From: Oscillospiraceae bacterium | GTDB taxonomy: Bacteria > Bacillota > Clostridia > Oscillospirales > Oscillospiraceae | Direction: 5' to 3' | NCBI GenBank assembly: GCA_022799035.1 | Contig: JAAWNQ010000009.1 | Coordinates: 289-64,288 of the forward strand | DNA length: 64,000 nucleotides | In this document: piece after piece, positions 37,727-53,539 of the stretch | Position numbering within the stretch: the first letter of the stretch is position 1 | Layout of the letters: every line of letters begins with the position of its first letter | Translations under genes and position numbers: made by a program | Notes under the pieces: model-generated | What the model was told of the DNA's origin: nothing | What the model saw: the letters and a program-made list of their open reading frames with translations, nothing else | The model's database searches: none

Positions 37727-37739
37727 TGCTTATCCCTCC

Positions 37740-38108
37740 TTACTTCTTCTTGTTGGCGACGGTACGCTTCGGACCCTTCCGGGTACGGGCGTTGGTCTTG
37801 GTCCTCTGACCCCGGACGGGCAGGCCCTTGCGGTGCCGCACGCCCCGGTAGCAGCCGATCTCGGTCAGCCGCTTGATATCCATGGCCAGGTCACGGCGGA
37901 GGTCGCCCTCCACAGTGTAGCTGTGACCAATGATCTCACGCAGCTTGGCCTCCTCGGCCTCGGTCAGGTCCTTCACCCGGGTATCGGGGTTGATCCCGGC
38001 CTGGGCCAGGATCTTAGTGGCGCTGGTGCGCCCGATGCCGAAGATATAGGTCAGACCGATCTCGATCCGTTTGTCTCTCGGCAAATCAATACCAGCAATA
38101 CGAGCCAT
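37740..38108 (-). CDS. rpsM: 30S ribosomal protein S13
   Basis: [24 protein letters not shown]. Confidence 0.99.
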
Positions 38109-38128
38109 ACTGTTTCAGCACCTCCTTC

Positions 38129-38242
38129 TTAACCTTGTCTTTGTTTATGCTTGGGGTTTTCGCAGATAACCATGACCTTGCCCTTGCGCTTGATGATCTT
38201 GCACTTCTCGCACATGGGCTTCACGGACGGCCTTACTTTCAT
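38129..38242 (-). CDS. rpmJ: 50S ribosomal protein L36 (not in ORF track)
   Basis: Hand-translated [37 protein letters not shown]. Confidence 0.98.
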
Positions 38243-38475
38243 GATAAACCTCCTTGTGAATGCCTGAATGGCCCCGCGTCGTCGCAAGCTACATATCCTT
38301 CCCTTCCGGGCAAGCCCAAAAGCTCAGTTATTCCGCTGCTCCTCCTTTCCCCAACAAAACCCTTCGGATTTTGCCGGGGACCCCATTTAAGGTCAAGGTC
38401 AAGAGCAGGGCAAGGTCTGCGACGATTTGGTCGTTTATAGTTTCGTTGGTGGGATCCCCCACCGGGAATACATTG

Positions 38476-38694
38476 TTATTTGGTTCTCCAGGTAATACGG
38501 CCTCTGGTGAGGTCGTAGGGCGACATCTGGACCGTGACCTTGTCCCCGGGCAGGATCCGGATGAAGTTCATCCGCAGCTTGCCGGAGATGTGGGCCAGGA
38601 TGATGTGGCCGTTACCGATATCCACCCGGAAGGTGGTGTTGGGGAGGGACTCTACCACAACGCCCTCCACCTCGATCATATCATCTTTTGCCAA
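38476..38694 (-). CDS. infA: Translation initiation factor IF-1
   Basis: TTG start; [20 protein letters not shown]. Confidence 0.98.
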
Positions 38695-38698
38695 AGCG

Positions 38699-38986
38699 TC
38701 AAACCTCCTTGGCTGGGAAGGCGGCTAAGGCCCTCCGAATGTCATTGTTGGTGACCGGCTCCCCCTGCATGAGCCTTTGGACCACAGGGTGGTCGTAGGG
38801 ATGCAGGTGGTCGGTCAGGACCCTTACATGGCCCAGTTTCTTTCGCTTGGGCTTGGTGACCTTTCGGCGTTTGCCGTCGGCCAGGTGAAGCATACCGCTC
38901 TCCCGGTCCACACCCACCACACAGAACAGCCCTTCCTTATCCCGTCCGGCGGTGGAGCGGACGATCCAGCCTTGGTAATCGTACAT
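38699..38986 (-). CDS. KOW-domain (L14E-like) protein
   Basis: [10 protein letters not shown]...ADGKRR...KPKRKK; usual map-infA position in Clostridia. Confidence 0.85.
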
Positions 38987-39756
38987 CAGGCCGGCTCTCC
39001 GTTCTCGTCCACCGTGAGGAGCTCAGGCTCCCCGTCGGTAATCAGGATGGTGTTCTCGTAATGGGCGGCGAGGCTGCCGTCGGCGGACACGGTGGTCCAC
39101 CTGTCGGGCAGCACCCGGACCCGCCAGTCTCCGGCGCAGACCATGGGCTCCACCGCGATGACCATACCGGGCTGGAACCGGGCGCCGTGGCCCGCCGCGC
39201 CGTAGTTGGGTACCTCGGGGGCCTCGTGCATCTTGCTGCCCACTCCGTGGCCCACGAAATCCCGGACCACGCCGTAGCCGAAGCTTTCCACATACTGCTG
39301 GACCGCGTGGCCCACGTCGGATACCCGGCAGCCTACCCGGGCGTTTTTCACGCCCTCGAAGAAGCTTTGCCGGGTCACCTCCACCAGCTTCCTGGCCTCC
39401 TCAGAGACCTGTCCGCAGAAGTAGGTGGCGGCGCAGTCTCCGTGGTATCCGTTGAGGAAAGCTCCCACGTCCACAGAGACGATGTCCCCCTCCTTCAGCT
39501 TCCGGGAACCGGGGATGCCGTGGATGACGACCTCGTTTACCGAAATACAGGTGGAGGCGGGAAACCCGCCGTAGCCCAGAAAAGACGGCTTGGCGCCGTG
39601 GCTTTCGATGAACTTCCGGACCTCTCTGTCGATCTCCCCGGTGGTGATCCCGGGGCGGATGAGGGATCCGGCCAACTTGCGGGCCTGGGCGGTGAGCCGT
39701 CCGGCGGCCCGCATTTTTTCGATCTCGCTGGGAGATTTAATGGAGATCATTTCCAT
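38986..39756 (-). CDS. map: Methionine aminopeptidase type I
   Basis: SVNEVVIHGIP, GHGVG, AVEPM, AHYENT. Confidence 0.98.
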   Translation of the reverse strand: MEMISIKSPSEIEKMRAAGRLTAQARKLAGSLIRPGITTGEIDREVRKFIESHGAKPSFLGYGGFPASTCISVNEVVIHGIPGSRKLKEGDIVSVDVGAFLNGYHGDCAATYFCGQVSEEARKLVEVTRQSFFEGVKNARVGCRVSDVGHAVQQYVESFGYGVVRDFVGHGVGSKMHEAPEVPNYGAAGHGARFQPGMVIAVEPMVCAGDWRVRVLPDRWTTVSADGSLAAHYENTILITDGEPELLTVDENGEPA

Positions 39757-39758
39757 CT

Positions 39759-40391
39759 TCAGACCCCCAGAATGGAGAGGATAGCCCTGTCCACACTTTC
39801 GATGCTTCCCGTGTTCTCCACCCTGCGGAGCAGGCCCCGCTGGGTATAGAATTCCTTGAGAGGCTCGGTCTGCTTGTGATAGACCGCCAGGCGGTCCCGA
39901 ATGGTCTCCTCGGTGTCGTCCTTCCTGTGGACCAGCTCACTGCCGCAGCGGTCGCAGAGCCCCTCAGTCTTGGGGGGCTGGACCACCATATGGTAGGTGG
40001 CGCCGCAGTCCAGACACACCCGGCGGCCCATGATCCGGTGGGTCACTTCGTCGTCCGAGACCTCAATGGAGATCACGTGGTCGAAGTGAAGCCCTTCCTC
40101 CTCCAGAGCCTGGGCCTGGGCCAGAGTGCGGGGCACCCCGTCCAGGATATAGCCCTTGGAGCAATCGGGCTGGGCCACACGCTGGGCCACCATGGGAATG
40201 ATGACCTCGTCAGGGACCAGCTGTCCCGCGTCGATGAGGACCTTGGCCTTTTTCCCCAACTCGGTCCCCGCCTTCACGGCGGAGCGGAGCATATCTCCGG
40301 TGGAGATGGTGGGTATGCCTAACTTTTCACTGATGATGGCCGCCTGGGTGCCTTTTCCGGCCCCCGGAGGTCCCAGGAAAATCAGTTTCAT
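39759..40391 (-). CDS. adk: Adenylate kinase
   Basis: GPPGAGKGTQ, STGDMLR, Zn-lid CLDC/CDRC. Confidence 0.98.
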   Translation of the reverse strand: MKLIFLGPPGAGKGTQAAIISEKLGIPTISTGDMLRSAVKAGTELGKKAKVLIDAGQLVPDEVIIPMVAQRVAQPDCSKGYILDGVPRTLAQAQALEEEGLHFDHVISIEVSDDEVTHRIMGRRVCLDCGATYHMVVQPPKTEGLCDRCGSELVHRKDDTEETIRDRLAVYHKQTEPLKEFYTQRGLLRRVENTGSIESVDRAILSILGV

Positions 40392-40404
40392 AGCCAGCCC
40401 CCGC

Positions 40405-41793
40405 TTACTCCAGGAAGCCCTTGTAGTGGCGCATCATGAGCTGGGCCTCCAGGGCCTTGCTGGTCTCCAGGGCCACGCCCACGGCGATGATGATGGAGGT
40501 CCCGCCCACAGCCAGGTCGGAACGGCCCACCAGATTGCCCGAAAGGATAGGCACGATGGCGATGACAGACAGGAACATGGCGCCGAAGAAAGTGATCTTG
40601 CTCAGCACCTTGCGGATGAAGTCGGCGGTGGGCTTGCCGGGCCGGAAGCCGGGGACAAAGCCGCCGTTCTTCTTCAGGTTGTTGGCAACCTCGGTGGGAT
40701 CAAACTGCATGGTGGAGTAGAAATAGCTGAAGGCCAGGATGAGCAGGAAATACACCACCGTGTAGATCAGCCCATTGGCGTCAAACACCCGCAGGAAGTT
40801 TTCCCAGAAGGTGGCGTCGGTCTGGCCGGGCTTGGCGGCCTGGATGCCCGCGAAAGCGCAGATGGTGGCGGGCAGGGAGGCGATGGACTGGGCGAAGATG
40901 ATGGGAAGCACACCGGACATATTCACCTTCAGGGGAATATGGCTGGACTGGCCGCCGTAGATCTTCCGGCCCACCACCCGCTTGGCGTACTGCACGGGGA
41001 TCCGCCGCTCGGCGTTCTGGATATAGACCACGAAGACCACCAGGGCCAGCAGGCCAATGACGATCACCGGGATCAGAGCCGGATGGAGCCGGGAGGCCAG
41101 GAAGTTGGCGTACCCTTCGCTCTCGGCGCCGCCGTAAGCGGCAATCAGATCCTCGGTGATGGGGATCTGCCACATGGACACGCCCTGCCCCATGGAGCTG
41201 ATCATGTTGGGGATCCGGGACAGGATGCCGGCAAACAGGATCATGGAGATACCGTTGCCGATGCCCTTCTCGGTAATCTGCTCGCCCAGCCACATGACGA
41301 AGGCGGAACCGGCCACAAAGGTGGTGACGATGACAAAGCCGGCCCAGAAACCGTTCACATCACCCACGGCCAACAGTTCGTTGGTCCGCATGATGGTGTA
41401 GTAGCCATAGCCCTGGAGCACCGCGATAGCCACGGTGGTATACCGGGTGATGGCGGCGATCTTCTTCCGGCCTTCCTCGCCGCCCTCCTTGGCCAGCCGC
41501 TCCAGAGCGGGGATAGCCACGGTGAGCAGCTCGATGATAATGGAGCTGTTGATATAGGGCTGGACGCCCAGGGCAAAGACGGCGGCCATGGAGAAGGCGG
41601 TGCCGTTCATAGTGCCCAGCAGATCAAAGATGGTGCCCGACATGTTGCCCAGAAAAGCGGCCAGCTTATCCCCGTCCACAAAGGGAGTGGGGACCACAGA
41701 GCCCAGCCGGAAGATCAACAGGGCGAAGACGGTGAATAGGATCTTGCTCTTCAGCTCAGGCACCTTCCAGGCGTTCTTTAGTGTCTGGATCAA
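40405..41793 (-). CDS. secY: Preprotein translocase SecY
   Basis: FALGVQPYINSSII, WLGEQITEKGIGNGIS, GFVPGFRPG. Confidence 0.98.
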   Translation of the reverse strand: MIQTLKNAWKVPELKSKILFTVFALLIFRLGSVVPTPFVDGDKLAAFLGNMSGTIFDLLGTMNGTAFSMAAVFALGVQPYINSSIIIELLTVAIPALERLAKEGGEEGRKKIAAITRYTTVAIAVLQGYGYYTIMRTNELLAVGDVNGFWAGFVIVTTFVAGSAFVMWLGEQITEKGIGNGISMILFAGILSRIPNMISSMGQGVSMWQIPITEDLIAAYGGAESEGYANFLASRLHPALIPVIVIGLLALVVFVVYIQNAERRIPVQYAKRVVGRKIYGGQSSHIPLKVNMSGVLPIIFAQSIASLPATICAFAGIQAAKPGQTDATFWENFLRVFDANGLIYTVVYFLLILAFSYFYSTMQFDPTEVANNLKKNGGFVPGFRPGKPTADFIRKVLSKITFFGAMFLSVIAIVPILSGNLVGRSDLAVGGTSIIIAVGVALETSKALEAQLMMRHYKGFLE

Positions 41794-41794
41794 A

Positions 41795-42235
41795 TCAGAT
41801 CACCTCAGCCTTTCCGCCCGCAGCCTCGATCTTTTCCTTGGCGGAGGCGGAGAAGGCAGTCGCCCGGACGGTCAGCTTCTTGGTGAGGGAGCCGTTGCCC
41901 AGTACCTTCACGCCGTACTCACACTTGGAAAGGATACCCTTTTCCAGCAGGTCGCAGACATTGACGGTAGCGCCGTCCTCAAACTTGTTCAGGGAAGCCA
42001 CGTTGATGGCCTCCAGCTTCTTTGCGAAGATGTTGTTGAAGCCCCGCTTGGGCAGCCGGCGGGCCAGAGGCATCTGGCCGCCCTCAAATCCCACGCGGAC
42101 CCCGCCGCCGGAGCGGGCCTTCTGACCCTTGTGGCCCCGGCCGCCGGTCTTGCCGTTGCCGGTGCCAACGCCCCGGCCCTTACGCCAGGCCTTGGGGTTG
42201 GAGCCGGCCACGGGGGAGAGATCATGAAGATTCAT
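41795..42235 (-). CDS. rplO: 50S ribosomal protein L15
   Basis: [20 protein letters not shown]. Confidence 0.98.
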
Positions 42236-42249
42236 TTCTCTTATCCTCC

Positions 42250-42447
42250 TTACTTGTCCTCGGTGACCTGCAGGAGGTAACCGATGCTGGCGATCTTGCC
42301 CCGGGTAGCCTCGTTATCAGGCTGCACGGTGGTATCGCCGATCTTCCGAAGGCCCAGAGACTCGGCGGTGGCCTTGTGCTTACAAAGGCGGCCGTTCAGG
42401 CTCTTGACCAGCTTGATATTCAAGCTCGCAGTTTTTGCTTTCGCCAT
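42250..42447 (-). CDS. rpmD: 50S ribosomal protein L30
   Basis: IKLVKSL...ESLGLRKIG; position. Confidence 0.93.
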
Positions 42448-42461
42448 TTCTTCCGCCCTCC

Positions 42462-42962
42462 TTAACCGACGATCTCTTCCACGCTCTTGCCCCGGATGGC
42501 GGCCACCTCTTCAGGCGTCCGCAGGGCCTTCAGCCCCTCGAAGGTGGCGGAAACCACGTTCTGGGGGTTGTTGGAGCGCAGGCACTTGGCCCGGATGTCC
42601 CGGATACCGGCAGCCTCCATGACGGCACGCACCGGGCCGCCGGCGATGATACCGGTACCGGCGGGGGCGGGCTTCATCATGACCTTGCCGGCGCCGAACA
42701 CGCCGATGACCTCGTGGGGAATGGTGGTGCCGGAGACACTCACCTTGATCATGTGCTTCTTGGCATCCTCGATGCCCTTGCGAATGGCCTCGGGGACCTC
42801 GGCGGCCTTACCAGTGCCGAAGCCCACGTTCCCCTTCTCATCGCCCACCACCATCAGGGCGGCGAACTTCATCACACGACCGCCCTTGACGGTCTTGGAA
42901 ACCCGGTTCAGGGAAACGAGCTTCTCGCTGTACTCACTCTGCTCACGTTCAAACTTAGGCAT
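42462..42962 (-). CDS. rpsE: 30S ribosomal protein S5
   Basis: [18 protein letters not shown]. Confidence 0.99.
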
Positions 42963-42979
42963 TTCGTTTCCTCCTCCCG

Positions 42980-43339
42980 TTAAAATTCCAGGCCGCCCTC
43001 ACGGGCGCCTTCGGCCAGAGCCGCCACACGTCCGTGATAGACGTAGCCGCCCCGGTCAAACACTACGGTAGTGATGCCGGCGGCCTTGGCCCGCTCAGCC
43101 ACCATCTGGCCAACCTTCTTGGCGCCCTCCACATTGGAGCCGCGGCCGTCAAAGGCTTTTTCCAGGGAGGAAGCGGAGACCAGGGTCTTGCCCGCCACAT
43201 CGTCGATGATCTGGGCGTAGATGTTGGTCCCGCTGCGGAACACGTTCAGACGGGGTCTCTCGGGCGTGCCGGAGATCTTCCCGCGGACACGGCGATGCCG
43301 CTTCAAACGCTGGGCGTTGGTATCAGGTCTTTTGATCAT
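42980..43339 (-). CDS. rplR: 50S ribosomal protein L18
   Basis: [21 protein letters not shown]. Confidence 0.98.
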
Positions 43340-43353
43340 ATCAGCACACCTCC

Positions 43354-43902
43354 TTACTTCTTCTTGACGCCGGTCTTACCTTCCTTGCGGCGGATGACCT
43401 CGTCAGCGTATTTGATTCCCTTGCCCTTGTAAGGCTCGGGAGGTCTTTTCTCTCTCACTTCAGCGGCGAACTGGCCCACCTTCTGCTTGTCGGGACCATG
43501 GATGGTAATGTGGTTGGGATCGGGCACGTCGATGGTGATCCCCTCGATCTCCTCCATAATAACCTGATGGGAGAAGCCCAGGTTCATCACCAGCTTCTTG
43601 CCCTCCTTGGCCACACGGTAACCTACGCCGTTGACTTCCAGATCCTTCTTGAACTCCTCGGTGACGCCCACCACCATGTTGTGGAGCAGGGTCCGGGTCA
43701 GGCCGTGCAGGCTCCGGTTCTCCTTGGCGTCATCGGGCCGAGTCACGTGGAGCTCGGCACCCTCCTGGGTAATGGTCATGGCGGGGCTGAGCTGCTGGCT
43801 CAGGGTTCCCTTGGGACCCTTGACGGTAACAACGTTACCCGCCTCGATCTTCACGTCCACACCGGCGGGGACAGAGATCGGCATTCTACCAATTCTAGAC
43901 AT
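43354..43902 (-). CDS. rplF: 50S ribosomal protein L6
   Basis: [15 protein letters not shown]. Confidence 0.99.
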
Positions 43903-43917
43903 TCTCTATTCCCCTCC

Positions 43918-44319
43918 TTACCATACGAAGGCCAGCACTTCGCCGCCAACGTGGGCGGCCCGGGCGGCCTTGTCGGTCATAACGCCCTTGGAGGTGGACA
44001 CGATGGCGATGCCCAGGCCCTTGATGACCCGGGGCATCTCGTCGGCGCCGGCGTAGACCCGCAGACCGGGCTTACTCACCCGGCGCAGACCGGTGATGAC
44101 CTTCTCCTTATTGGGCTGGTTGTACTTCAAAGTGATGCGGATGACGCCCTGGGTGCCGTCGTCGATGAGCTGGTAATTCTTGATATACCCCTCATCCAGC
44201 AGGATCTGGGCGATGGACTTCTTCATGTTGGAAGCGGGAACGTCCACCGAATCATGCTTGGCATTGTTGGCGTTGCGGATACGGGTAAGCATATCCGCGA
44301 TGGGATCTGTAATGTGCAT
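43918..44319 (-). CDS. rpsH: 30S ribosomal protein S8
   Basis: [21 protein letters not shown]. Confidence 0.99.
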
Positions 44320-44360
44320 GCTTTTTTACCTCCTTATAGAGTTACAGGCAGAGCCTGTAT

Positions 44361-44410
44361 CAGCGGCAAGGTATCTGAGGTTAGGCAGCCCCAGACCTGT
44401 TAAACCGCTG
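44361..44410 (-). promoter_or_regulatory. Candidate uS8-binding operator hairpin (16S h21 mimic) upstream of rpsH
   Basis: mRNA CAGCGG..AGGUCUGGGG loop CCUCAGAUACCU..CCGCUG with bulged UA in GAUAC. Confidence 0.5.
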
Positions 44411-44449
44411 TCGGGCACTTTCAAATAACCGGGCAAAAGCCCCCTGGTT

Positions 44450-44635
44450 TTACCAGGAGGACTTTTTCACCCCGGGGATCTGACCCTTGTAAGCCAGCTC
44501 GCGGAAGCAGATACGGCAGATACCGTAGTCCCGCAGGTAGGCGTGAGGCCGGCCGCAGAGCTTGCAGCGGTTATAGCGGCGGCTGGAGAACTTGGGAGTC
44601 CTCTGCTGCTTGAGGATCATAGACTTCTTCGCCAT
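44450..44635 (-). CDS. rpsN: 30S ribosomal protein S14 (Zn-binding type)
   Basis: RCKLCGR...CRIC. Confidence 0.98.
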
Positions 44636-44647
44636 GGTATTCCCTCC

Positions 44648-45331
44648 TTACGCCCGGTCGGCGAAGGGCGCGCCGATGAGCGTCAGCAGCTCCCGGGCCT
44701 CCTCGTCGGTGTTGGCGGTGGTGCAGAGCACAACGTCCATGCCCCGGATCTTGTCGATCTTGTCGTACTCGATCTCGGGGAAGATCAGCTGCTCCTTGAT
44801 ACCCAGAGCGTAGTTGCCCCGGCCGTCGAAGGAGTTGGGGTTGATGCCCCGGAAGTCACGGACGCGGGGCAGGGCCACGTTGAACAGACGGTCCAAAAAC
44901 TCCCACATCCGGTCGCCCCGGAGGGTGACCTTGGCGCCGATGGGCATCTCCTCACGGAGCTTGAAGTTAGCCACGGACTTCTTGGCCTTGGTGATGATGG
45001 CCTTCTGGCCGGTGATCTTGGTCAGATCCCCCACCACAGCCTCCAGCACCTTGGAGTTCTCCCGAGCCTCACCGCAGCCGCAGTTGACCACGATCTTGTC
45101 CAGCTTGGGAAGCTGCATCACGGACTTGTAGCCGAACTTCTGCATCAGAGCAGGAGCGACTTCCTTCTGATACTTGGCCTTCAGGTTGGGGACGTACTTG
45201 CCGTCGTCAGCTTTGGCAGCCTTCTTCTCGGCCTTGGGGGCCTTCTCAGCCTTGGGGGCGGCAGCCTTCTTGGTCTTGGTCTCTTTGACCTCGGCCTCAG
45301 CCATCACCTCGGGCTCTTTCTTCTCAGCCAT
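44648..45331 (-). CDS. rplE: 50S ribosomal protein L5 with N-terminal K/A/E-rich extension
   Basis: [15 protein letters not shown]; RBS GAGGAG at 45331 start. Confidence 0.97.
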
Positions 45332-45348
45332 TGGTTTCTCCTCCTCTC

Positions 45349-45666
45349 TCAGATTTCAGCGCCGCACTTCTTGCAGACGCGGACCCGCTTGCCGTCCTTC
45401 CCGACCTTGCTGGCGGGACGGGTGGGCTTGTTGCACTTGGGGCACACCCGCATGACCTTGCAGGCGTAGATGGGGGCTTCCTTCTTGATGATGCCGCCCT
45501 GCTCGCCCTGCTGGCGGGGCTTGGTGTGGCGGGAGACCACGTTGACCTTCTCCACCACCACTTTCCGGCTCTCGGGCATGGCCTCCAGAACGGTGCCCTG
45601 CTTGCCCTTATCCTTGCCGGAGAGAACGACCACAGTGTCGCCCTTCTTAACGCTCATAGTGTTCAT
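45349..45666 (-). CDS. rplX: 50S ribosomal protein L24
   Basis: [16 protein letters not shown]. Confidence 0.98.
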
Positions 45667-45683
45667 ATTCTTCTCCTACCCCC

Positions 45684-46052
45684 TTACAGCACTTCGGGAG
45701 CCAGCGAGAGGATCTTCATGTAATCCTTGTCGCGCAGCTCGCGGGCCACCGGCCCAAAGATACGGGTGCCTTTGGGGTTTCTGTCGTCCTTGATGAGGAC
45801 GGCGGCGTTCTCGTCAAAGCGGACGTAGCTGCCGTCGGGACGGTGGATGCCCTTGGCGGTACGGACGATGACGGCCTTGACCACCTCGCCCTTCTTCACC
45901 GTGCCGCCGGGTTGCGCCTTCCGCACGGAGGCCACCACCACATCGCCGATGTTGGCGAACTTCCGCTTGGAGCCGCCCAGGGGACGGATGACCTTGATCT
46001 CTTTGGCGCCGGTATTATCGGCGACTTTCAGATAGCTTTCCTGCTGAATCAT
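45684..46052 (-). CDS. rplN: 50S ribosomal protein L14
   Basis: [16 protein letters not shown]. Confidence 0.99.
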
Positions 46053-46064
46053 ACCAGCACCTCC

Positions 46065-46325
46065 TTATTTCGCTTTTTCAATGATCTCGACCACGCGCCA
46101 GCGCTTATCCTTGCTCAGGGGGCGGGTCTCCATCACGCGGACGCGGTCGCCCACGCCACACTCGTTCTTCTCGTCATGGGCCTTGAGCTTGTAGGTCCGC
46201 TTGACGATCTTCTTGTACAGGGGGTGGGCCACACGGTCGGCGATGGCCACAACCACGGTCTTGTCCATCTTATCGGAAACCACCAGGCCGACTCTGGTCT
46301 TGCGGGAAGAAGTTCTGTTTTCCAT
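46065..46325 (-). CDS. rpsQ: 30S ribosomal protein S17
   Basis: [20 protein letters not shown]. Confidence 0.98.
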
Positions 46326-46338
46326 TTCCTACTCCTCC

Positions 46339-46536
46339 TTATCGGCCGGCGAGCTCTTGCTCGCGGATGATGGTCTTGACCCGGGCGATGTCCCGCTTGA
46401 CCTGGGCGATCTTCACCGGGTTCTCCAACTGGTTGGTGGCGTGCTGAAGGCGGAGGTTGAACAGATCCTTCTTCAGCTCACCCAGCTTCGCCTCCAGCTC
46501 GGAGACGGACATCTTGCGAACTTCATTGGCCTTCAT
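46339..46536 (-). CDS. rpmC: 50S ribosomal protein L29
   Basis: LFNLRLQHATNQLEN..IARVKT. Confidence 0.98.
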   Translation of the reverse strand: MKANEVRKMSVSELEAKLGELKKDLFNLRLQHATNQLENPVKIAQVKRDIARVKTIIREQELAGR

Positions 46537-46967
46537 TACGCTTCACCACCCTTCTGCGGCTCTTCGCGCTTGATGATCTTGCACTTGACCGGCAGCTTGT
46601 GGCTGGCAAGGCGCAGGGCCTCCTTGGCCACATCCTCGGCCACGCCGGCGATCTCAAACATGACCTTGTCGGGCTTCACCACGGCCACCCAGTGGTCGGG
46701 GGCGCCCTTACCGGAACCCATACGGGTACCCAGGGCCTTGCTGGTCACGGGCTTATCGGGGAAGATCTTGATCCAGACCTTACCGCCACGCTTGGTGTGA
46801 CGGGTCATGGCGATACGGGCAGCCTCGATCTGGTTGGAGGTGATCCAGGCCGGCTCGGTGGTGGCAAGGCCCCACTCGCCGTAAGCCACGGTATTACCCC
46901 GGGTGGCCCGGCCGGTCATACGGCCCCGGTGGACCCGGCGGTATTTAACTCTCTTGGGCATCAGCAT
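46536..46967 (-). CDS. rplP: 50S ribosomal protein L16
   Basis: [16 protein letters not shown]. Confidence 0.99.
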
Positions 46968-46969
46968 GG

Positions 46970-47848
46970 TTACTCTTGCCCTCCTTCCTGAATCTCAGGA
47001 GCGGCGGCCTCCACAGGAGCGGCGGCCTCTACCGGCTTGGGGGCCGGACGGCTCTGGACGCGGTTATAGCTGGGGCCGCTGGGACGGCGGTCGCCGTCGC
47101 GGCGGGGGCCGCCCCGGCGGTCGTCCCGGCGGTCGCCGTCACGGCGATCCCGGCGGGGACGCTCAGGACGCTCCTTGAAGTTCTTGGTGTCCAGCGTACG
47201 GGGGGTGGTCCGCAGGGTCTGGGTCAGGACCTCGCCCTTGTAGATCCACACCTTCACGCCGATACGGCCATAGGTGGTAGCGGCCTCGGTAAAGCCGTAC
47301 TCCACATCGGCCCGCAGGGTCTGCAGGGGGATGGTACCGTCGTGGTAGTGCTCCACACCGGCGATCTCACGCCCGCCCAGACGGCCGGAGCAGGAAATCT
47401 TGATACCCAGGGCGCCGGCCCGCATGGCCCGGCCCATGGCGTTCTTCATGGCCCGGCGGTGGGCGATACGGCCCTCCAGCTGCTGGGCGATGTTCTCGGC
47501 CACCAGCTGGGCGTTGGTATCCATGCTCTTCACCTCAACAATGTTGAGGGCCACGCTCTTACCGATCATCTTCTCCACCTGGGCGCGGAGCCGCTCGATC
47601 TCGGCGCCGCCCTTGCCAATGACCACACCGGGCTTGGCGCAGTGGAGGTAGATCCGCACCTTGGCGTTGTCGCGCTCGATCTCGATCTTGGGAACGCCGG
47701 CGGAATACAGGGTCTTCTTCAGGTACTCCCGGATCTTGTGATCCTCCACCAGCAGGTCGCCCACCAGCTCGTTCTTAGCGTACCAGCGGGAGTCCCAGTC
47801 CTTGATGATGCCTACCCGGAGGCCATGAGGATTGACTTTCTGTCCCAT
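46970..47848 (-). CDS. rpsC: 30S ribosomal protein S3 with long R/D/G- and A/P-rich C-terminal tail
   Basis: [31 protein letters not shown]. Confidence 0.98.
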
Positions 47849-47849
47849 A

Positions 47850-48191
47850 TTACTTGGCCTCCTTTTCCGCTACCGCGACAGTGATGTGGGAAGTGCGCTT
47901 GTTGATCCGGAAGGCCCGGCCCTGGGCACGGGGGCGGATCCGCTTAATGATGGGGCCCGGAGTGGCGAAGGTGGTGGACACATACAGCTTCTCGGGATCC
48001 ATCTGGTGATTGTTCTCCGCGTTGGCGGCCGCGCTCTTGAGCAGCTTCAGCAGCAGCTCGCTGGCAGCCTTGGGAGTGGTCATGAGGATGGCGGTGGCCT
48101 GGGCCACGCTCTTGCCCCGGATCAGGTCGCAGACAATGCCGACCTTGCGGGGGGAGATACGGGCGTATCTCAAAGTTGCTTTCGCTTCCAT
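47850..48191 (-). CDS. rplV: 50S ribosomal protein L22
   Basis: [19 protein letters not shown]. Confidence 0.98.
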
Positions 48192-48208
48192 ATCTTCTCT
48201 CCTCCCTA

Positions 48209-48478
48209 TTAACCGGTCTTGCTGCCCGAGTGGCCCTTGAAGGTCCGGGTGGGGGCGAACTCGCCCAGCTTGTGACCCACCATATCCTCGGTGACGTAGA
48301 CAGGCACGTGCTTCCGGCCGTCATGGACGGCAAAGGTATGACCCACGAAGGAGGGGAAGATGGTGGAGGCGCGGCTCCAGGTCTTCAGGACCTTCTTCTC
48401 GTTCTTCTGGTTCATCTCGTCAACCCGCTTCAGCAGCTCAGGAGCGCAAAACGGGCCCTTCTTAATGCTTCTGGACAT
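48209..48478 (-). CDS. rpsS: 30S ribosomal protein S19
   Basis: [13 protein letters not shown]. Confidence 0.99.
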
Positions 48479-48493
48479 ATTTTACTCTCCTCC

Positions 48494-49327
48494 TTACTTC
48501 GCGTTGCGGTGCTTGACGATGAACTTCTCAGTGCGGTTCTTGCCCTTCCGGGTCTTGTAACCCATGGCGGGCTTGCCCCAGGGGGTCACAGGGCCGGGAC
48601 GGCCAACCGGGCTCTTGCCCTCGCCGCCGCCGTGGGGGTGGTCGTTGGGGTTCATGACAGAGCCACGAACCGTGGGCCGCCAACCCATGTGGCGCTTCCG
48701 GCCGGCCTTACCGATCTGGATGTTCTCGTGATCGGTGTTGCCCACCTGGCCGATGGTGGCCATGCAGTCCAGGCGGATGTAGCGCATCTCGCCGGAGGGC
48801 AGACGAACCTGGGCCATGCCGTTCTCCTTGGCCATCAGCTGAGCCGCCACACCGGCGGACCGGACCAGCTGGCCGCCCTTGCCAGGGTAGAGCTCGATGT
48901 TGTGGATCATGGTGCCCACAGGGATGTTGCTGATGGGCAGAGCGTTGCCGGGGAGAATGTCGGCGTCGGGGCCGGTCATGATGATGTGGCCGGCCTTCAG
49001 GCCCACAGGAGCCAGGATATACCGGCGCTCCCCGTCCTCGTACTCGATGAGGGCGATGTTGGCGGAGCGGTTGGGATCGTACTGCAGGTTGATCACCTTG
49101 GCAGTGCCGTTCTTGTCCCGCTTGAAGTCCACCACACGGTACTTCTTCTTGTTGCCGCCGCCGCGGTGGCGGACGGTGATCCGGCCATAGCTGTTGCGGC
49201 CGGCGTTCTTCTTCAGGTTCTCCAGCAGAGAACGCTCGGGCTTGGCCTTTTTGTCGATCCCGTCGAAGGCGGACACGGTCATGTGGCGCCGGGAGGGAGT
49301 CGTCGGTTTAAAAGTCTTAATTGCCAT
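48494..49327 (-). CDS. rplB: 50S ribosomal protein L2
   Basis: [20 protein letters not shown]. Confidence 0.99.
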
Positions 49328-49340
49328 TTTTCTCTCCTCC

Positions 49341-49637
49341 TTACACCATGCCCTCGAAGAACTCGATGGTCTTGGAGTCCTCCGTCAGGGTGATCATGGC
49401 CTTTTTCCAGGAAGGACGGCGTCCCTTGGGGTAAGCCCCGGTCCGCTTCTCCTTGCCCTGCATGTTCAGGGTGTTGACCTTAGCCACCTTCACCCCGAAG
49501 ATCTCCTCGATGGCCTTGGCGATCTGGATCTTATTGGCGTCCTTGGCCACCTCGAAGGTGTACTTCTTGTTCTCGGTCTCGCTCATGGACTGCTCGGTGA
49601 TGATGGGGCGCTTGATGATATCGTAAGCGGTAGCCAT
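49341..49637 (-). CDS. rplW: 50S ribosomal protein L23
   Basis: [19 protein letters not shown]. Confidence 0.98.
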
Positions 49638-50251
49638 TACGCGAACACCTCCTCGATAACGGCCAGAGCGGCCTTGTCCACGATGAACTCGTTGGCGTTC
49701 AGGATGTCGTAGACGTTGATGAGATTGGCGGGGGAGGTCACGACCCCGGGAATGTTCCGGGCGGACTTCACCACGTTGGGGCAGCTGGTGACCACCAGAG
49801 CCTTCTTGGAGTCCACCGCGTTGAGGAACTGCTGGAAGGTCTTGGTCTTGATCTCGTCCATCCCCAGACCGTCCACCACCAGCACCTTGCCCTCAGCCGC
49901 CTTGGCGGAGAGAGCGGACTTCAGCGCCAGCCGACGGACCTTCTTGTTCAGGGTGTAGCGGTAAGAGCGGGGCTTGGGGGCGAACACGATTCCGCCGTGG
50001 GTCCACTGGGGAGCCCGGGTGGAACCCTGACGGGCCCGGCCGGTGCCCTTCTGGCGCCAGGGCTTTCTGCCGCCGCCGGAGACTTCAGCCCGGGTCAGGG
50101 CGCTCTGAGTGCCCTGCCGGCAGTTGGCCAGGTGGTTCTTCACCACGTCATGCATCACGCTGACGTTGGGCTCGATCCCGAAAATGGCCTCGGAAAGCTC
50201 TACGCTGCTCTTCTTCTTTCCGGCCATATCATACACGTTAGCCTTAGGCAT
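49637..50251 (-). CDS. rplD: 50S ribosomal protein L4
   Basis: KPWRQKGTGRARQG. Confidence 0.99.
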   Translation of the reverse strand: MPKANVYDMAGKKKSSVELSEAIFGIEPNVSVMHDVVKNHLANCRQGTQSALTRAEVSGGGRKPWRQKGTGRARQGSTRAPQWTHGGIVFAPKPRSYRYTLNKKVRRLALKSALSAKAAEGKVLVVDGLGMDEIKTKTFQQFLNAVDSKKALVVTSCPNVVKSARNIPGVVTSPANLINVYDILNANEFIVDKAALAVIEEVFA

Positions 50252-50270
50252 TTCTTACTCTCTCCTTTCC

Positions 50271-50996
50271 TTAAGCGTTGCGGGCGGAAGCCTTCTGGGG
50301 ATTCCGTCCGGAGGCCTTCTGCGGGTTCTTGGAGATACCGGCGTCGGCGCCCTTCTCCTTGACGTTGATCACGCTGTTGCGCAGGAACACCACCCCGCCC
50401 TTAGGGCCGGGAATGGCGCCCCGCACGGCGATGAGGTTCAGCTCCTCGTCCACCTTGATCACGTCCAGGTTCAGCACGGTGACCTGCTCGGCGCCCATGT
50501 GGCCCGCGCCGTCCCGGCCCTTGAAGATCCGGCTGGGATCGGTGCCCGAGCCCAGGGAGCCCTGGTGACGGTGGACAGGGCCGCCGCCGTGGGTGTTGCG
50601 CTTGACCGCGGCGCCGTGGCGCTTGACAACACCCTGGAACCCGTGGCCCTTGCTGACGCCGGTGACGTCCACCCGGTCGCCCTCGGCGAACACGGTGCAG
50701 TTCACCGTGTCGCCCACGTTCAGGCTGTCGGTATCCTTCAGCTTGAACTCCTTGAGTACCTTCTTCAGTACGCCCTCGCCGGCCTTCTTCAGGTGGCCCA
50801 GCTCAGGCTTGGTGAGCTTGCGCTCAGCCACGTCCTGGTAACCCAGCTGGATGGCGTTGTAGCCGTCCTTCTCCTCGGTCTTCTTCTGCACCACAGTGCA
50901 GGGGCCCGCCTCAATGACGGTGACCGGGATCACGCGGCCCGCTTCGTCGAAGATCTGCGTCATGCCGACCTTCTTGCCGATAATGGCCTTTTCCAT
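50271..50996 (-). CDS. rplC: 50S ribosomal protein L3
   Basis: [18 protein letters not shown]. Confidence 0.99.
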
Positions 50997-51187
50997 GTGT
51001 CTGCTTCCTCCTTATTTTAAGGTTATTGGTTGAGAGAGTTATCCACAACCGGGATATTGCTCTGTCAACATGACCCGTCTGCCTCAATAGGCGGCAGACC
51101 GCGGTACAACAAATTTATGCCCTCAAAGAGGGTCTGCGTGGGGCTCGACGACTCGGCAGGCCCTCTCCCCTAACTCCAGGGGGGCTG

Positions 51188-51368
51188 TCAGGCTCCGCAA
51201 TGACCTGGTCGCTTCGGGATCTAACTCCTCCGCCGCACTCCTGTTAGTCGTGCGGTTCCCTTCGGCATCGGCTTCGCCGAACTCCGCAAAATCTCTCCGC
51301 GGCCTTCAGCCGCTCCAAGATTTCACTCCGCTTCGTCGTTAGCCCCTCAGCAGGCCATCGCTCCGCCC
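51188..51368. repeat. Nested-hairpin repeat element, copy A (rpsJ-rplC spacer)
   Basis: Shares the exact 23-mer cgcttcgggatctaactcctccg (51210-51232) and a gtcgttag..ccctc arm with copy B. Confidence 0.7.
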
Positions 51369-51371
51369 TTC

Positions 51372-51686
51372 TTACAGCTTGATCTCAATATCCACACCAG
51401 CGGGCAGTTCCAGGCTCATCAGGGCCTCCACGGTCTTGGGGGAGGGCTTGATGACGTCGATGAGCCGCTTGTGGGTGCGGCGCTCGAACTGCTCCCGGGA
51501 ATCCTTGTACTTGTGCACGGCCCGAAGGATGGTGACGACCTCCTTCTTGGTGGGCAGGGGGATGGGGCCGGAGACGGTAGCGCCGGTGCGCTTGGCGGTC
51601 TCCACGATCTTCTCCGCCGACTGGTCGATGAGCTGGTGATCGTAAGCCTTCAGGCGAATACGGATCATTTCTTTCTGAGCTGCCAT
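51372..51686 (-). CDS. rpsJ: 30S ribosomal protein S10
   Basis: [17 protein letters not shown]; ATG 51686 after AAGGAGG. Confidence 0.99.
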
Positions 51687-51704
51687 GTGTTGTTCCTCCT
51701 TAAT

Positions 51705-51885
51705 AATACGAAGTGCTTGGTTTGTACTGGCTGCCACGCTTCGCAACGGTCTGACCGCTTCGGGATCTAACTCCTCCGACTTCGCAAAAAGCTCTGTGCG
51801 GCTTTGCCGCCCGCCGCTTTTCGCTCCGCTCCGTCGTTAGTCCCTCGACAGACCCTTGCTCCGCGCTTCGTGTCACGCTTCGTAT
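51705..51885. repeat. Nested-hairpin repeat element, copy B (rpsJ 5' leader)
   Basis: 23-mer at 51756-51778; successive stems tacgaag/cttcgta, gcaa/ttgc, ggtctg/cagacc, ctaac/gttag, aaaagc/gctttt. Confidence 0.7.
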
Positions 51886-51930
51886 CGGTGAGATTTCCTA
51901 TCCACGTTTTCGTGCGTATCACTCCACGAC

Positions 51931-51963
51931 AGAAAGAAAACCGGCGCAAAAGCTGGCCGGTTT
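51931..51963 (-). terminator. Candidate attenuator in S10 leader
   Basis: AAACCGGC/GCCGGUUU stem followed by UCUUUCU on minus strand. Confidence 0.5.
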
Positions 51964-52009
51964 GCTCCCCGCAAGGCGATATACGCCGTGGCAAGGACTT
52001 CTCAGCCGC

Positions 52010-52075
52010 CCGATCAACGGACATACTCCGCGGAAGTTACCTCATTTCTGAGCAATCTCCCGCATCATCGCATAG
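52010..52075 (-). ncRNA. Candidate S10 ribosomal leader element
   Basis: GCGAUGAUGCGGGAGAUUGC...UUCCGCGGAGUAUGUCC just after the promoter, resembling my recollection of Firmicute rpsJ leaders; not searched against Rfam. Confidence 0.5.
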
Positions 52076-52100
52076 TGCGCCCCTAAACAGGCGCTTGATT

Positions 52101-52129
52101 ATGATACTACAAACTCCCCCGGTAGTCAA
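52101..52129 (-). promoter_or_regulatory. S10 operon SigA promoter
   Basis: TTGACT (52129-52124) - 17 nt - TATCAT (52106-52101), AT-rich upstream tract. Confidence 0.75.
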
Positions 52130-52348
52130 TAGGAAATTTCAAATTTTACGAAGAAATTTTCAAGGAATCTCCGATTCTTTCTCCCCTTTTCTTCCGGGGA
52201 ACACTTTCCCGACAAAAACTCCGGGTCAGAGCCACAGCCCCGCCCGGAATTTTTGTGAATGTTTTTTGTTTTGCCGCGCGGAATCCCTCCGCTTTTAAGG
52301 GGACCTTTCTCCCGTAGGGGCGCACACTGTGCGCCCGCGCCGTTTTTC

Positions 52349-53539
52349 TTACTCCCAGGGAAAAGCCGTCTCCTCCTCATAGGGGGCCAACATCTCCGGC
52401 CTTCCCTCCCCGTTGATGCAAAGCCCGTCCAGATAGGCCTCCCCCTCCCGTCCGGCGCTGTCAGTGTAGAGAAGGGACAGGATCACCCTATCTCCCCGCT
52501 TCAGCTCCAGGCCCTCCGCCGGGATGGCTGTCTCCTCCCGTTTCTCCAGGGACTTCTCCTCCCCGCTCCAAAAGAGCTCCCCGTTGACCCACAGCCGGAG
52601 ACAGCCCTTTTTCAACCCCAGATCCTGCCAGCCTTCGGCGGTCTTATACTGCCCCGGCCCAACGCTGTCCAGGTAGGCGTCCATCCGGTCCGCCACGATC
52701 TTTCCCTCCCGGCTACCCACCGACCAGCCCAGGTTGCCGTTAAAATTGAGTTTTGTGCCGCTCAGCAGATAGCTCTCCTCCCCCAGCTGCTGGGTCACCA
52801 CAGCCCCATCGCCCACAAACCCCACCGACAAAATGATGTTGTCGGTGAGGGGGCAGGTCAATTCCGCCGTGAAGGTCTGCCCCGCCCCCAGCGTTCCGGG
52901 GATCTCCACCGGCTCAAACTCCGCCCCCACGGCGGAGAACACCGCCCTCATCCCCTCCCGGTACTCCCGGGGGGTGGCGGTGAGGGAGAAGGTCACCGTC
53001 CCCCTCTCCAGATTCATCTCCAGGATCTCATAGCCCTTCCCGGCGGTGACGCTGTTCTGCTCCTCCAGGATCTCCCGCACCTGTCCGGTGAGGGAGCTGA
53101 TCTGCCGGGAGACCGTGTTGTCGATGTTGGATATATTATAATGTAGGCCCCCGATCTGGTTTTCCAGGTTGTGGATCCGGCTCATAAGGGCCCAGCCCGC
53201 CACTGCCACGGCCACCGCCGCCAGCACAAAAGGCCACCTCTTCCGCTTTTTGGGCTCCGCCGCGGGCGGGACCAGCCGCTGGGCGATGGCCTCCAGGGCC
53301 TTCAGCTCCCGCTGGGTGAGCTCGTGGTCCGGCCCCTCGCTCTCCTCCAGCCCCAAAAGGCTTCCCACCGACACCCCGAAAAGCTTGCTCATGGCAATAA
53401 GCTTATCCAGCTCGGGCACCGTGGCCCCCGACTCCCACTTGCTCACCGACTGCCGGGCCACCCCCAGCCTGTCCCCCAGCTCCTCCTGGGACATTCCGGC
53501 GGATTTCCGCAGGGCCTGTATCCGTTCACCCAAAGTCAT
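52349..53539 (-). CDS. XRE/Cro-C1 HTH protein with a TM helix and large C-terminal domain
   Basis: LGERIQALRKSAGMSQEELGDRLGVARQSVSKWESG; TM WPFVLAAVAVAVAGWALM. Confidence 0.88.
   Translation of the reverse strand: MTLGERIQALRKSAGMSQEELGDRLGVARQSVSKWESGATVPELDKLIAMSKLFGVSVGSLLGLEESEGPDHELTQRELKALEAIAQRLVPPAAEPKKRKRWPFVLAAVAVAVAGWALMSRIHNLENQIGGLHYNISNIDNTVSRQISSLTGQVREILEEQNSVTAGKGYEILEMNLERGTVTFSLTATPREYREGMRAVFSAVGAEFEPVEIPGTLGAGQTFTAELTCPLTDNIILSVGFVGDGAVVTQQLGEESYLLSGTKLNFNGNLGWSVGSREGKIVADRMDAYLDSVGPGQYKTAEGWQDLGLKKGCLRLWVNGELFWSGEEKSLEKREETAIPAEGLELKRGDRVILSLLYTDSAGREGEAYLDGLCINGEGRPEMLAPYEEETAFPWE

Follow-up and report, generated by a model that had tools for sequence, protein, structure and literature searches.

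The gene rpsJ, in the 64,000-nucleotide stretch of DNA that we analysed (the window), is bracketed by two copies of a structured RNA element, here termed the rod. These copies belong to a previously undescribed, low-copy family of ~140-nt elements present in a few mouse-gut Clostridia. Our best explanation, to which we assign about an even chance, is that the rod is a cis-acting, self-contained mRNA element that would serve both as a barrier to decay and as an obstacle at translation termination, and that would have spread at low frequency at the DNA level.

Both copies are on the minus strand and hence in the sense of the S10-operon mRNA. Along the transcript, a promoter-like site (52129-52101) is followed by an S10-Clostridia ribosomal-protein leader (52006-52076, minus strand; Rfam RF03136, 36.5 bits versus a gathering score of 35.1) and then, on the same transcript and starting 136 nt downstream, by copy B (51729-51870, minus strand, 142 nt), which scored 143.9 bits with the covariance model (E=1e-33). 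Copy B lies in the 5' UTR of the operon, between the attenuator hairpin and the Shine-Dalgarno sequence of rpsJ, and sits in the loop of a host hairpin (51708-51883, minus strand) whose arms, ACGAAG (51883-51878) and CTTCGT (51713-51708), are conserved in all relatives. The ribosome-binding site of rpsJ, AAGGAGG (51701-51695), is located immediately 3' of this hairpin. Between the two copies is rpsJ itself (51372-51686, minus strand), an open reading frame for the 104-residue ribosomal protein S10; the exact protein is annotated as PF00338 Ribosomal_S10 on other contigs. Copy A (51183-51372, minus strand, 190 nt; 140.3 bits) begins with the final A of the TAA that ends rpsJ and fills the first half of the spacer between rpsJ and rplC. 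Over aligned columns, identity between the two copies is only 71%, so neither is a recent duplicate of the other.

An earlier, sequence-only reading of this locus had drawn attention to a 23-mer shared by the two copies. This sequence, CGCTTCGGGATCTAACTCCTCCG, does occur exactly twice in the window, on the plus strand at 51210-51232 (copy A) and 51756-51778 (copy B), 546 bp apart, with no third match at up to 3 mismatches (0 expected); the stretches that flank it are 82-84% identical over 50-51 nt. It corresponds to an invariant core, comprising the 3' strand of helix P2 and neighbouring loops. The recurrence of CGAAG and CGGAG on the mRNA strand, also remarked upon earlier, amounts to 9-10 motifs per 200 nt at both copies versus 0.63 expected, and elsewhere in the window CGRAG never exceeds 4 per 200 nt. 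The extra two-hairpin insert reported for copy A is 49 nt in length relative to the family consensus (51233-51281, minus strand, defined by an alignment gap), lies on the 3' side of the central hairpin, and occupies a column that is a gap in 12 of 14 aligned copies and is filled only in the window species (W_A and L009_A). By contrast, the extra outer layers ascribed to copy B are outside the element. They consist of the host hairpin, which element-free relatives also have, and of a 12-nt partial repeat, GAAGCGTGACAC, read from the sequence directly 5' of copy B (51870-51881, minus strand), in which the GAAGCG of the element's 5' end is fused to the TGACAG of its 3' end (a 'solo' form). The proposal that units insert into one another therefore holds for the copy A insert and fails for the outer layers of copy B. 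Two other candidate features near the copies were rejected: a decayed tandem copy in the 78 nt after copy A (51105-51182) had a local score of 18 versus 14.9 ± 2.2 for shuffles, which is not significant, and an upstream open reading frame ending at copy B proved, by eye, to be only a GTG-started frame of 10 codons lacking a Shine-Dalgarno sequence.

The rod, typically 142 nt in length (range 98-199 nt), consists of five Watson-Crick helices (P0-P4) split by internal loops in which G faces A, the loops having either CGRAG opposite CGRAG or GA opposite GA. P0, through which the ends of the element pair, has only 4-5 base pairs with purine mismatches, and helix P2, which contains a single bulged A, is formed by the core of invariant sequence. 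First, a structural alignment of 14 copies contained 44 pairs, with 94.3% of cells paired as compared to 33-42% in slid controls, and 19 of these pairs displayed compensatory changes on both sides, a number reached in 0 of 500 shuffles. Second, the nested stems described in the sequence-only reading are present in minimum-free-energy folds of the mRNA-sense strand (z=-3.5 for copy B and -3.8 for copy A), whereas plus-strand folds are no more stable than those of shuffled sequence (z=-0.2 and -1.3). Third, the alignment contains 54 G.U cells versus 8 A.C cells, purines make up 84% of its unpaired columns, and the G and A columns that face each other do not vary. The sense-strand z-scores, the excess of G.U over A.C, and the purine loops identify the gene-sense strand as the folding strand. 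Together with additional copies elsewhere, the covariation and mRNA-strand folding bear out the earlier view of a non-coding element that is selected for structure and tolerated within the S10 operon. None of the outcomes that the sequence-only reading had named as counting against it was observed. Kink-turn and hammerhead readings of the CUGA...GAA segment were also considered. A kink-turn has a C-stem and a 3-nt bulge followed by G.A and A.G pairs (1b.1n and 2b.2n); read by eye, the P1/P2 junction (CUGA-GGG / CCC-GAA-GCG) has C rather than A at position 2b, the segment departs from the hammerhead consensus as well, and no Rfam entry matches.

Beyond these two copies, we found 16 further solid matches at 9 other sites, distributed among 5-6 mouse-gut Oscillospiraceae metagenome-assembled genomes (MAGs) and metagenome contigs; the sample of the family is small, at ~20 copies from 5-6 species. 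MAGs that carry the element have 1-5 matches each, and only 3-12 contigs in each metagenome run match at 80% identity or more. Identity across the family is 65-91%, and copies within one genome are only ~70-85% identical to each other, so there has been no recent burst; gene conversion, rather than selection, may account for part of this within-genome similarity, as where the P4 helix of L011 resembles that of L018. Clusters are direct tandems, with tandem pairs at L012, L014, L017, and L019. Partial copies also occur, one copy is fused to a duplicated fragment of a host gene, and a second subfamily keeps the outer architecture and has a different core. An exact 21-mer had 0 matches in JGI metagenomes, where a gapped pattern matched two contigs only; the 21-mer and two gapped patterns had no match in IMG/VR, and blastn searches of phage and plasmid collections returned no match. 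No described family matched. At gathering thresholds, the only Rfam 15 cmscan match in the window was RF03136 at 52006-52076, a feature separate from the rods, and nothing at E<=10 fell on either copy in a search of 50900-52300; among eleven related loci, Rfam matches were limited to T-box and S10 leader families. In the literature, the core sequence strings appeared in no paper, and keyword searches gave general works only.

The placement of the rods follows rules of position and orientation. All 11 independent sites are within transcription units, with the rod in the sense of the gene that it flanks, and at 9 of them the rod starts between -4 and +1 nt relative to the stop codon of the gene before it. 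The genes at these nine sites are rpsJ, hfq, sepF, a glgC/D-like gene, pta, a xanthine/uracil permease gene, a membrane-protein gene, a citrate synthase gene, and a duplicated rnhA end, which have no obvious common function. The remaining two sites are in 5' leaders, namely the S10 leader and a glyQS T-box (T-box score 86 bits). A separate intrinsic terminator follows the element at four sites (L013, L016, L017, and L018); copies A and B are themselves no intrinsic terminators, as neither is followed by a U tract and a terminator scan found none. A miniature inverted-repeat transposable element (MITE) would be expected to insert in either orientation, in contrast to the 11 sense sites seen here.

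The rods around rpsJ are also transcribed. Copies A and B are both found on metatranscriptome contigs contiguous with rpsJ (leader-B-rpsJ and rpsJ-A-rplC). This evidence comes from assembled contigs of RNA runs, which covered copy B at 51662-52029 and copy A at 50963-51438 and 51011-51431, with 0 mismatches in each case; the ends of the RNA contigs coincide with those of DNA contigs and are therefore assembly breaks. The ratio of copy B to copy A depth is ~3.5 in RNA runs and ~1 in DNA runs.

Could the rod instead be selfish DNA, a non-autonomous element like those of the REP/RAYT or IS200/IS605 type, in which a single-stranded DNA hairpin is read by a transposase encoded elsewhere? The core would then be the transposase-binding site, the orientation would reflect the lagging-strand template, whose sequence equals the sense strand of genes co-directional with replication, and any effects on RNA would be by-products. 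We consider this explanation unlikely, even though several observations fit it. The family is dispersed over unrelated loci in several genomes, its core sequence is invariant while outer helices covary, and the tandem and partial copies and the fused host-gene fragment point to DNA rearrangement at the sites. A true 12-nt direct repeat flanks a rod as well, at copy B only. G.A mismatches and G.T pairs are stable in DNA hairpins too, and the G.T and G.A signature would be expected equally from a same-sense single-stranded DNA hairpin. Moreover, sense orientation alone is compatible with a DNA-level reading, because gene orientation correlates with replication direction in Firmicutes, and GC skew on the 8-kb loci (-0.06 to +0.16) is too uninformative to separate the replication strand from the transcription strand. 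Against this explanation, a DNA-only element needs neither confinement to transcription units nor abutment to stop codons, and fixed orthologous copies keep their pairing and change at a lower rate than synonymous sites. The copies are few and old; the family was found on no phages, plasmids, or viral contigs; and an open-reading-frame survey and three Pfam scans revealed no evident transposase in the window, as the sequence-only reading had stated. Resemblance of the left flank to the 3' end of the element (GAAGCGTGACAGCC), considered as a sign of a target or duplication, was no closer at the nine sites than at 103 control gene ends (means of 3.94 versus 4.03, p=0.49). Finally, four DNA runs of the species revealed no presence/absence polymorphism. 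Of the earlier suggestion of a mobile element, historical dispersal to unrelated loci stands, and current mobility in the species sampled by these runs finds no support.

Element-free orthologous loci, which the sequence-only reading had proposed to look for, were found at each of three sites checked. Both rpsJ copies are absent from relatives with an identical S10 protein. Copy B is missing at the same place in L002-L008, L010, L011, and L015, where the host hairpin has a short loop at the position of the rod, and the element-free site carries the 12-nt solo form, exactly GAAGCGTGACAG in L015 and GAAGCGTGGACAG in L011, an exact 12-mer being expected ~0.03 times in all sequence data examined. 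Copy A has orthologues in L011 and L015 and is absent from L002-L008 and L010, in which the rpsJ-rplC spacer is 118-127 nt versus 375 nt. Relatives without a copy at pta were found too. Motifs at the element-free pta and rpsJ-3' sites, for example ACGTACAGCC in L022, may be remnants, although at a background of 0.63 per kb at up to 2 errors they are suggestive only. Where copies persist, they are constrained: orthologous copies 3' of rpsJ are 84-91% identical, as compared to 67-82% at fourfold synonymous sites of the adjacent rpsJ and rplC genes, and orthologous copies evolve more slowly than synonymous sites.

These comparisons also bear on the idea that the rod is a neutral passenger, a harmless leftover with no positive function, whose structure would persist only because copies that fold shut leave the host mRNA undisturbed. 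It would explain why relatives fare well without the rod, why the range is taxonomically narrow, and why size varies so freely, with a 49-nt insert in copy A, a 57-nt insert in L013, and a deleted centre in L014. It accounts poorly for a core that is invariant in sequence itself, beyond pairing, and for rates of change below those of synonymous sites in highly expressed genes, and it leaves stop-codon abutment unexplained. We regard it as very improbable.

The invariant core comprises ~45 nt that do not vary between loci or between species (loop J1/2, P2 and its bulged A, and the GA/GA and GGA/GAA loops), and helices outside it only covary. This pattern, the fixed position relative to the stop codon, and the second subfamily, in which a different core is set within the same outer architecture, would fit a binding site for a specific RNA-binding protein or ribonucleoprotein (RNP), such as a reader of helices and GA motifs or a nuclease specificity factor. 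In that case, the rod would serve for docking and would be no mere passive barrier, and the factor bound to it would regulate, post-transcriptionally, a small set of genes (rpsJ, hfq, sepF, pta, glg, rnhA, and others). We hold this to be unlikely, a shade below the DNA-element explanation. The partner is hypothetical, the host genes share no obvious function, the P1-P2 loop departs from the kink-turn consensus, and copies in relatives come and go with no apparent replacement. Nevertheless, a plain decay barrier needs neither ~45 nt of invariant sequence nor an exact start at the stop codon, which hints at a specific partner. The rod might be the RNA half of a dedicated, undescribed system, which would account for the stop-codon rule and the invariant core in one of two ways: a specific protein or RNP reads the rod while its base is being opened by the terminating ribosome, or the element spreads through an RNA intermediate and is targeted to the ends of open reading frames. 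This speculation is a long shot, slightly less so than the neutral-passenger reading; if its first variant is true, the rods would represent a new class of termination-coupled post-transcriptional control.

The explanation that we favour, a cis-acting mRNA element, would operate as follows. Rods would act as RNA, within the host mRNA, each as one long closed rod. Because the closing helix joins both ends, the rod is structurally self-contained and thus leaves the host RNA intact when it sits in an intercistronic spacer, in a 3' UTR before a terminator, in a T-box, or within a leader hairpin. It would be very stable, unfavourable to RNase III, and a barrier to exonucleases: behind a cistron, it would block 3'-to-5' decay by PNPase and RNase R, and copy B, next to the ribosome-binding site, would block 5'-to-3' decay by RNase J. 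As the base of the rod starts at the stop codon, a ribosome that terminates there would have to open P0 together with the first loop, and this melting would couple the rod to termination, either by slowing termination or by insulating the next cistron. The pair around rpsJ would delimit and stabilise an rpsJ-only mRNA segment; an effect on the processing or stability of rpsJ mRNA, as the sequence-only reading had raised, is a plausible prediction. The family would have reached about a dozen unrelated sites by a DNA-level route, duplicated locally in tandem, and been lost by deletion between short terminal direct repeats (GAAGCG). If this explanation is true, a few uncultured gut Clostridia place a ready-made RNA rod exactly at the ends of open reading frames and inside regulatory leaders, and one pair of rods sets apart rpsJ, the gene for S10, a protein that doubles as the transcription factor NusE. 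The family would then provide a covariation-backed model for tuning single-cistron output in essential operons, for structured repeats that live harmlessly in riboswitch-type leaders, and for runs of G.A pairs that build long nuclease-resistant helices. In mouse-gut MAGs, the covariance model can help to annotate long spacers that now seem 'empty'.

Among known systems, the family is best read as comparable in kind to REP-, ERIC-, and BOX-like repeats, with unusual features. Like rods, REPs (and BIMEs) are extragenic, co-transcribed hairpins of 3' UTRs and intercistronic spacers that are dispersed across chromosomes, and they block 3' exonucleases and stabilise upstream mRNA. In 2015, Liang, Rudd and Deutscher reportedly found that many REPs lie <=15 nt from a stop codon and stall terminating ribosomes there. 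Structured mRNAs containing REPs are substrates of RNase R and PNPase, both of which are needed (PMC12320835). REPs and rods differ in sequence, which is unrelated, and in form, as REPs are 20-40 nt with a GTAG-type head and rods are ~140 nt with five helices, purine loops, and no GTAG head. REPs also occur in both orientations, in inverted pairs, and by the hundreds per genome, versus one orientation and a handful per genome for rods, and have a cognate RAYT (Y1 HUH) gene, no such open reading frame being evident in the 64-kb window.

ERIC/IRU elements of enterobacteria, Yersinia, and Vibrio are imperfect palindromes of ~127 nt in transcribed intergenic regions, with size variants that arise from internal insertions at fixed places and with orientation-dependent effects on mRNA stability. 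Rods resemble them in size, palindromic form, transcribed intergenic setting, and internal-insertion variants. Unlike rods, ERICs are proteobacterial, occur in both orientations, are unrelated in sequence, and lack the GA-loop architecture, and a stop-codon placement rule is not reported for them; the strict orientation and stop-codon rules of the rods offer a testable contrast with both REP and ERIC. The Streptococcus pneumoniae repeat SPRITE, the Bacillus cereus group repeat bcr1, and Correia/NEMIS of Neisseria are likewise small, interspersed, RNA-folding, co-transcribed, and lineage-restricted. The same is true of the BOX and RUP repeats of S. pneumoniae (PMC3049150). Rods share with these families their small size, interspersion, co-transcription, and lineage restriction, and some of the families are modular. 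RUP, Correia, and bcr1 have MITE-type terminal inverted repeats and target duplications, neither of which is clear in rods, and BOX is built from three box modules; all of these families number in the tens to hundreds and occur in both orientations, whereas rods are low in copy number and strictly sense.

Integron attC sites are also structured, follow open reading frames in one orientation, and fold on one strand. In an attC-like reading of the rod, CTAAC...GTTAGAT would be the R''/R' core sites and rpsJ a cassette-like unit. GTTAGAT fits the GTTRRRY box, and one open reading frame ends at the TAA within CTAAC. The inverse core site is lacking, as GGCTAAC and GACTAAC do not fit RYYYAAC, and the supposed R''/R' pair, which in attC would be the outermost paired boxes, is enclosed by the conserved helices P1 and P0. 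Whereas attC sites come in arrays with an integrase, rods occur singly or in pairs, next to housekeeping genes, inside a T-box, and within the S10 leader, with no cassette arrays and no evident integrase-like open reading frame in the window. This reading is close to refuted. Finally, intercistronic stem-loops of the cip-cel operon of Ruminiclostridium cellulolyticum set the ratios of processed transcripts (PMC10311766). These stem-loops stand between cistrons of a Clostridial operon and act in the way that we propose for the rpsJ pair; they are locus-specific, whereas the rods form a dispersed sequence family with a conserved core.

The two nested hairpin copies that a sequence-only reading had reported around rpsJ were confirmed by four lines of evidence. 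First, the 23-mer noted in that reading occurred exactly twice in the window, which held no further match even when three mismatches were allowed. Second, the flanks of copies A and B were 82–84% identical. Third, the mRNA-sense strands of the two copies folded better than shuffled sequence (z = –3.5 and –3.8), and the opposite strands folded no better than shuffles (z = –0.2 and –1.3). Finally, CGAAG/CGGAG motifs were present at 9–10 per 200 nt at both copies compared to 0.63 expected, an enrichment confined to these copies within the window. The S10 operon is encoded on the minus strand, and its coordinates in this paragraph run in the mRNA direction. Copy B (51870–51729) is downstream of a promoter-like site (TTGACT, 17 nt, TATCAT; 52129–52101), the S10-Clostridia leader (Rfam RF03136; 52076–52006), and a CCGGC...GCCGG hairpin plus U tract (~51960–51931) that looks like the S10 attenuator. 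It is followed by rpsJ (51686–51372), preceded by its ribosome-binding site, then by copy A (51372–51183), another 185 nt of spacer, and the start of rplC (50996).

Copies beyond this pair were found in three ways. A search for the CGRAGGAGTTAGATCCCGRAG core across GTDB species, with one genome for each, gave ten matches on nine contigs from four mouse-gut Oscillospiraceae MAGs, a gapped pattern search added two metagenome contigs, and a covariance model from an alignment of 14 copies recovered all of them plus more divergent members, finding nothing beyond copies A and B over the 64-kb window. Copy number is low, with 3–12 contigs per run matching copy B at 80% identity or more. The consensus fold has 44 pairs, of which 18–19 show compensatory double changes, bearing out the earlier claim of covarying nested stems; 94.3% of cells across the alignment were paired, covariation as high as observed arose in 0 of 500 shuffles, and sliding partners by 1–3 columns reduced pairing to 33–42%.

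The element folds as one closed rod (helices P0–P4). P0 (4–5 bp) and P1 (10 bp) covary, as do P3 and P4, and an asymmetric junction leads from P1 to P2, an invariant 9-bp helix with one bulged A (GGGGCUAAC / GUUAGAUCCC). In the inter-helix loops, invariant alignment columns place G opposite A (for example, columns 10 G/238 A, 12 A/236 G, 37 G/206 A, and 38 A/205 G), and purines account for 84% of unpaired columns compared to 52% of paired columns. The recurring CGRAG "bulges" described previously are thus the opposing strands of the same purine–purine internal loops. Because paired cells contained 54 G·U and only 8 A·C combinations, the folding strand is the gene-sense strand. Alternatively, a specific protein might dock on the rod, which we consider unlikely. 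The covariance model also identified a second subfamily, distinct in its core and located in tandem behind first-subfamily copies on other contigs (L014, 4795–4933; L019, 3366–3502, minus strand; L012, 1–264, minus strand). Its core reads CUGYGAGGGMGCUUGGAC ... GGAGGGAAAGSRACCGAGCG, with outer helices and purine loops retained; the tandems are direct, and the two L014 copies have nearly identical P0/P1 helices and different cores.

Both copies are co-transcribed with rpsJ. In two metatranscriptome runs, some mismatch-free contigs joined the leader and copy B to rpsJ (51662/51704–52029) and others joined rpsJ and copy A to rplC (50963/51011–51438), the contig ends being assembly breaks. The ratio of B-contig to A-contig depth, a crude measure, was 3.3–4.0 in the two RNA runs compared to 0.8–1.3 in four DNA runs, indicating that the metatranscriptome contigs reflect RNA. 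The higher B depth in RNA runs (window 50963–52029) would fit either attenuation or differing stability.

Elements are dispersed among unrelated loci and occur strictly in the sense orientation, at stop codons or within leader hairpins. All 11 independent sites were sense to the flanking gene and within a transcription unit, and in nine the element started –4 to +1 nt from the end of the upstream stop codon. The upstream genes were rpsJ (orthologous sites in the window, L011, and L015), hfq, sepF (orthologous sites in L012 and L019), a glgC/D-like gene upstream of glgA, pta, and genes for a xanthine/uracil permease, a small membrane protein, and citrate synthase, with rnhA in contig L018 as a special case. 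There, rnhA is intact and its 3′ end is duplicated: a 74-nt repeat of its last codons, ~120 nt past the normal rnhA end (reverse strand, oriented 150–440), is joined in frame to the element, the fused frame ending at the TAA inside CTAAC. Such an arrangement points to duplication or rearrangement acting locally at the borders of the element. After operon-terminal genes, the element is followed by a separate intrinsic terminator (L013, L016, L017, and L018). At several sites, the leftover spacer is entirely 3′ of the element, a pattern that random placement within spacers would not give. The two 5′-leader sites are copy B in the S10 leader and a copy in a glyQS T-box leader (L021), immediately 3′ of the T-box sequence (86 bits, E = 9e-19) and ahead of the terminator. 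The L021 locus (911–1243, minus strand) has a second GGCGTGACAGC motif ~50 nt past the element, and its T-box falls slightly short of the gathering score, a shortfall that the insertion probably explains. We regard the structural and positional facts about the rod as nearly certain.

Copies have been lost in relatives. Contigs encoding an identical S10 protein fell into two groups, the window species (L001 and L009) with both copies and related genera with neither, and the rpsJ–rplC spacer is 118–127 nt in element-free relatives compared to 375 nt in the window species. Element-free sites were also found at pta orthologs (84–86% protein identity), where only 10–25 nt separate the stop codon from the terminator. 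Two closer species (L011 and L015) retain the rpsJ-3′ copy and lack copy B. At their B sites, the host hairpin that encloses copy B in the window, ACGAAG...CTTCGT, instead has GAAGCGTGACAG (L015) or GAAGCGTGGACAG (L011) in its loop, and the 12-mer there is exactly the first six plus the last six bases of the element; the same 12-mer, GAAGCGTGACAC, lies directly ahead of copy B in the window, with a chance expectation of ~0.03 in all sequence analyzed. The "outer layers" once assigned to copy B are actually this host hairpin and solo repeat, both present in relatives without the copy. Both element ends carry GAAGCG, and deletion between these direct repeats probably removed copies and left the 12-nt solo form.

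Orthologous rpsJ-3′ copies are 84–91% identical compared to 67–82% at fourfold synonymous sites of adjacent rpsJ and rplC, and the element is therefore constrained beyond the local neutral rate, although gene conversion among copies could contribute in part. That the rod is a neutral passenger seems quite improbable. Copies A and B are 71% identical and are not recent duplicates of each other. Four DNA runs contained the species (≥96% identity), and none of their contigs skipped either copy; a GC3-filtered ORF survey found no transposase-like ORF in the window. The structure-selected mobile or RNA element proposed earlier is supported, with the outer layers of copy B corrected as above and with mobility evident only as past dispersal to unrelated loci. 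That the element is selfish and read in single-stranded DNA is fairly unlikely, and that it is an attC-like site exceedingly so.

The best overall reading, to which we give roughly even chances, is a self-contained mRNA rod that acts as an exonuclease barrier tied to termination; its functional step is more tentative. As a self-contained blocking module, the rod would impede PNPase and RNase R at cistron ends and RNase J beside the rpsJ ribosome-binding site. A terminating ribosome, which covers ~10 nt past the stop codon, would have to open P0 and the first loop, and so might couple the rod to termination. The two copies flanking rpsJ would bound a stable rpsJ-only segment; S10 doubles as NusE, and separate tuning of rpsJ could be useful. 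REPs exert an effect at stop codons. Precedents for the proposed action are provided by REP sequences (PMC12320835) and by intercistronic stem-loops in a Clostridial operon (PMC10311766). The element would work like interspersed hairpins of the REP, ERIC, BOX, and bcr1 types but lacks the defining features of each family. It matched nothing in Rfam models, where neither copy fits a family, or in phages, plasmids, or the literature, and is a previously undescribed addition to this kind. Compared to those families, it is unusual in occurring in a single orientation and beginning at the stop codon, in its runs of G·A loops, invariant core, and low copy number, and in residing within two regulatory leaders.

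Elsewhere, the window (19400–25840, plus strand; 35300–51700, minus strand) appeared ordinary, with an F-type ATP synthase operon, PTS and Tat genes, the S10-spc-alpha ribosomal operons, and shikimate-pathway genes. In the portion of the rpsJ–rplC spacer common to all relatives (51010–51113, minus strand), two conserved hairpins, with no match among Rfam families, precede a CCUU that pairs with AAGG of the rplC Shine-Dalgarno sequence; 6 of 24 pairs show compensatory changes among five species, making this a candidate cis-regulator of rplC translation. A hairpin and U run (52203–52264, minus strand) directly after an HTH_3-domain gene (52349–53539) gave a weak, spurious mir-8521 match and is most likely the intrinsic terminator of that gene.
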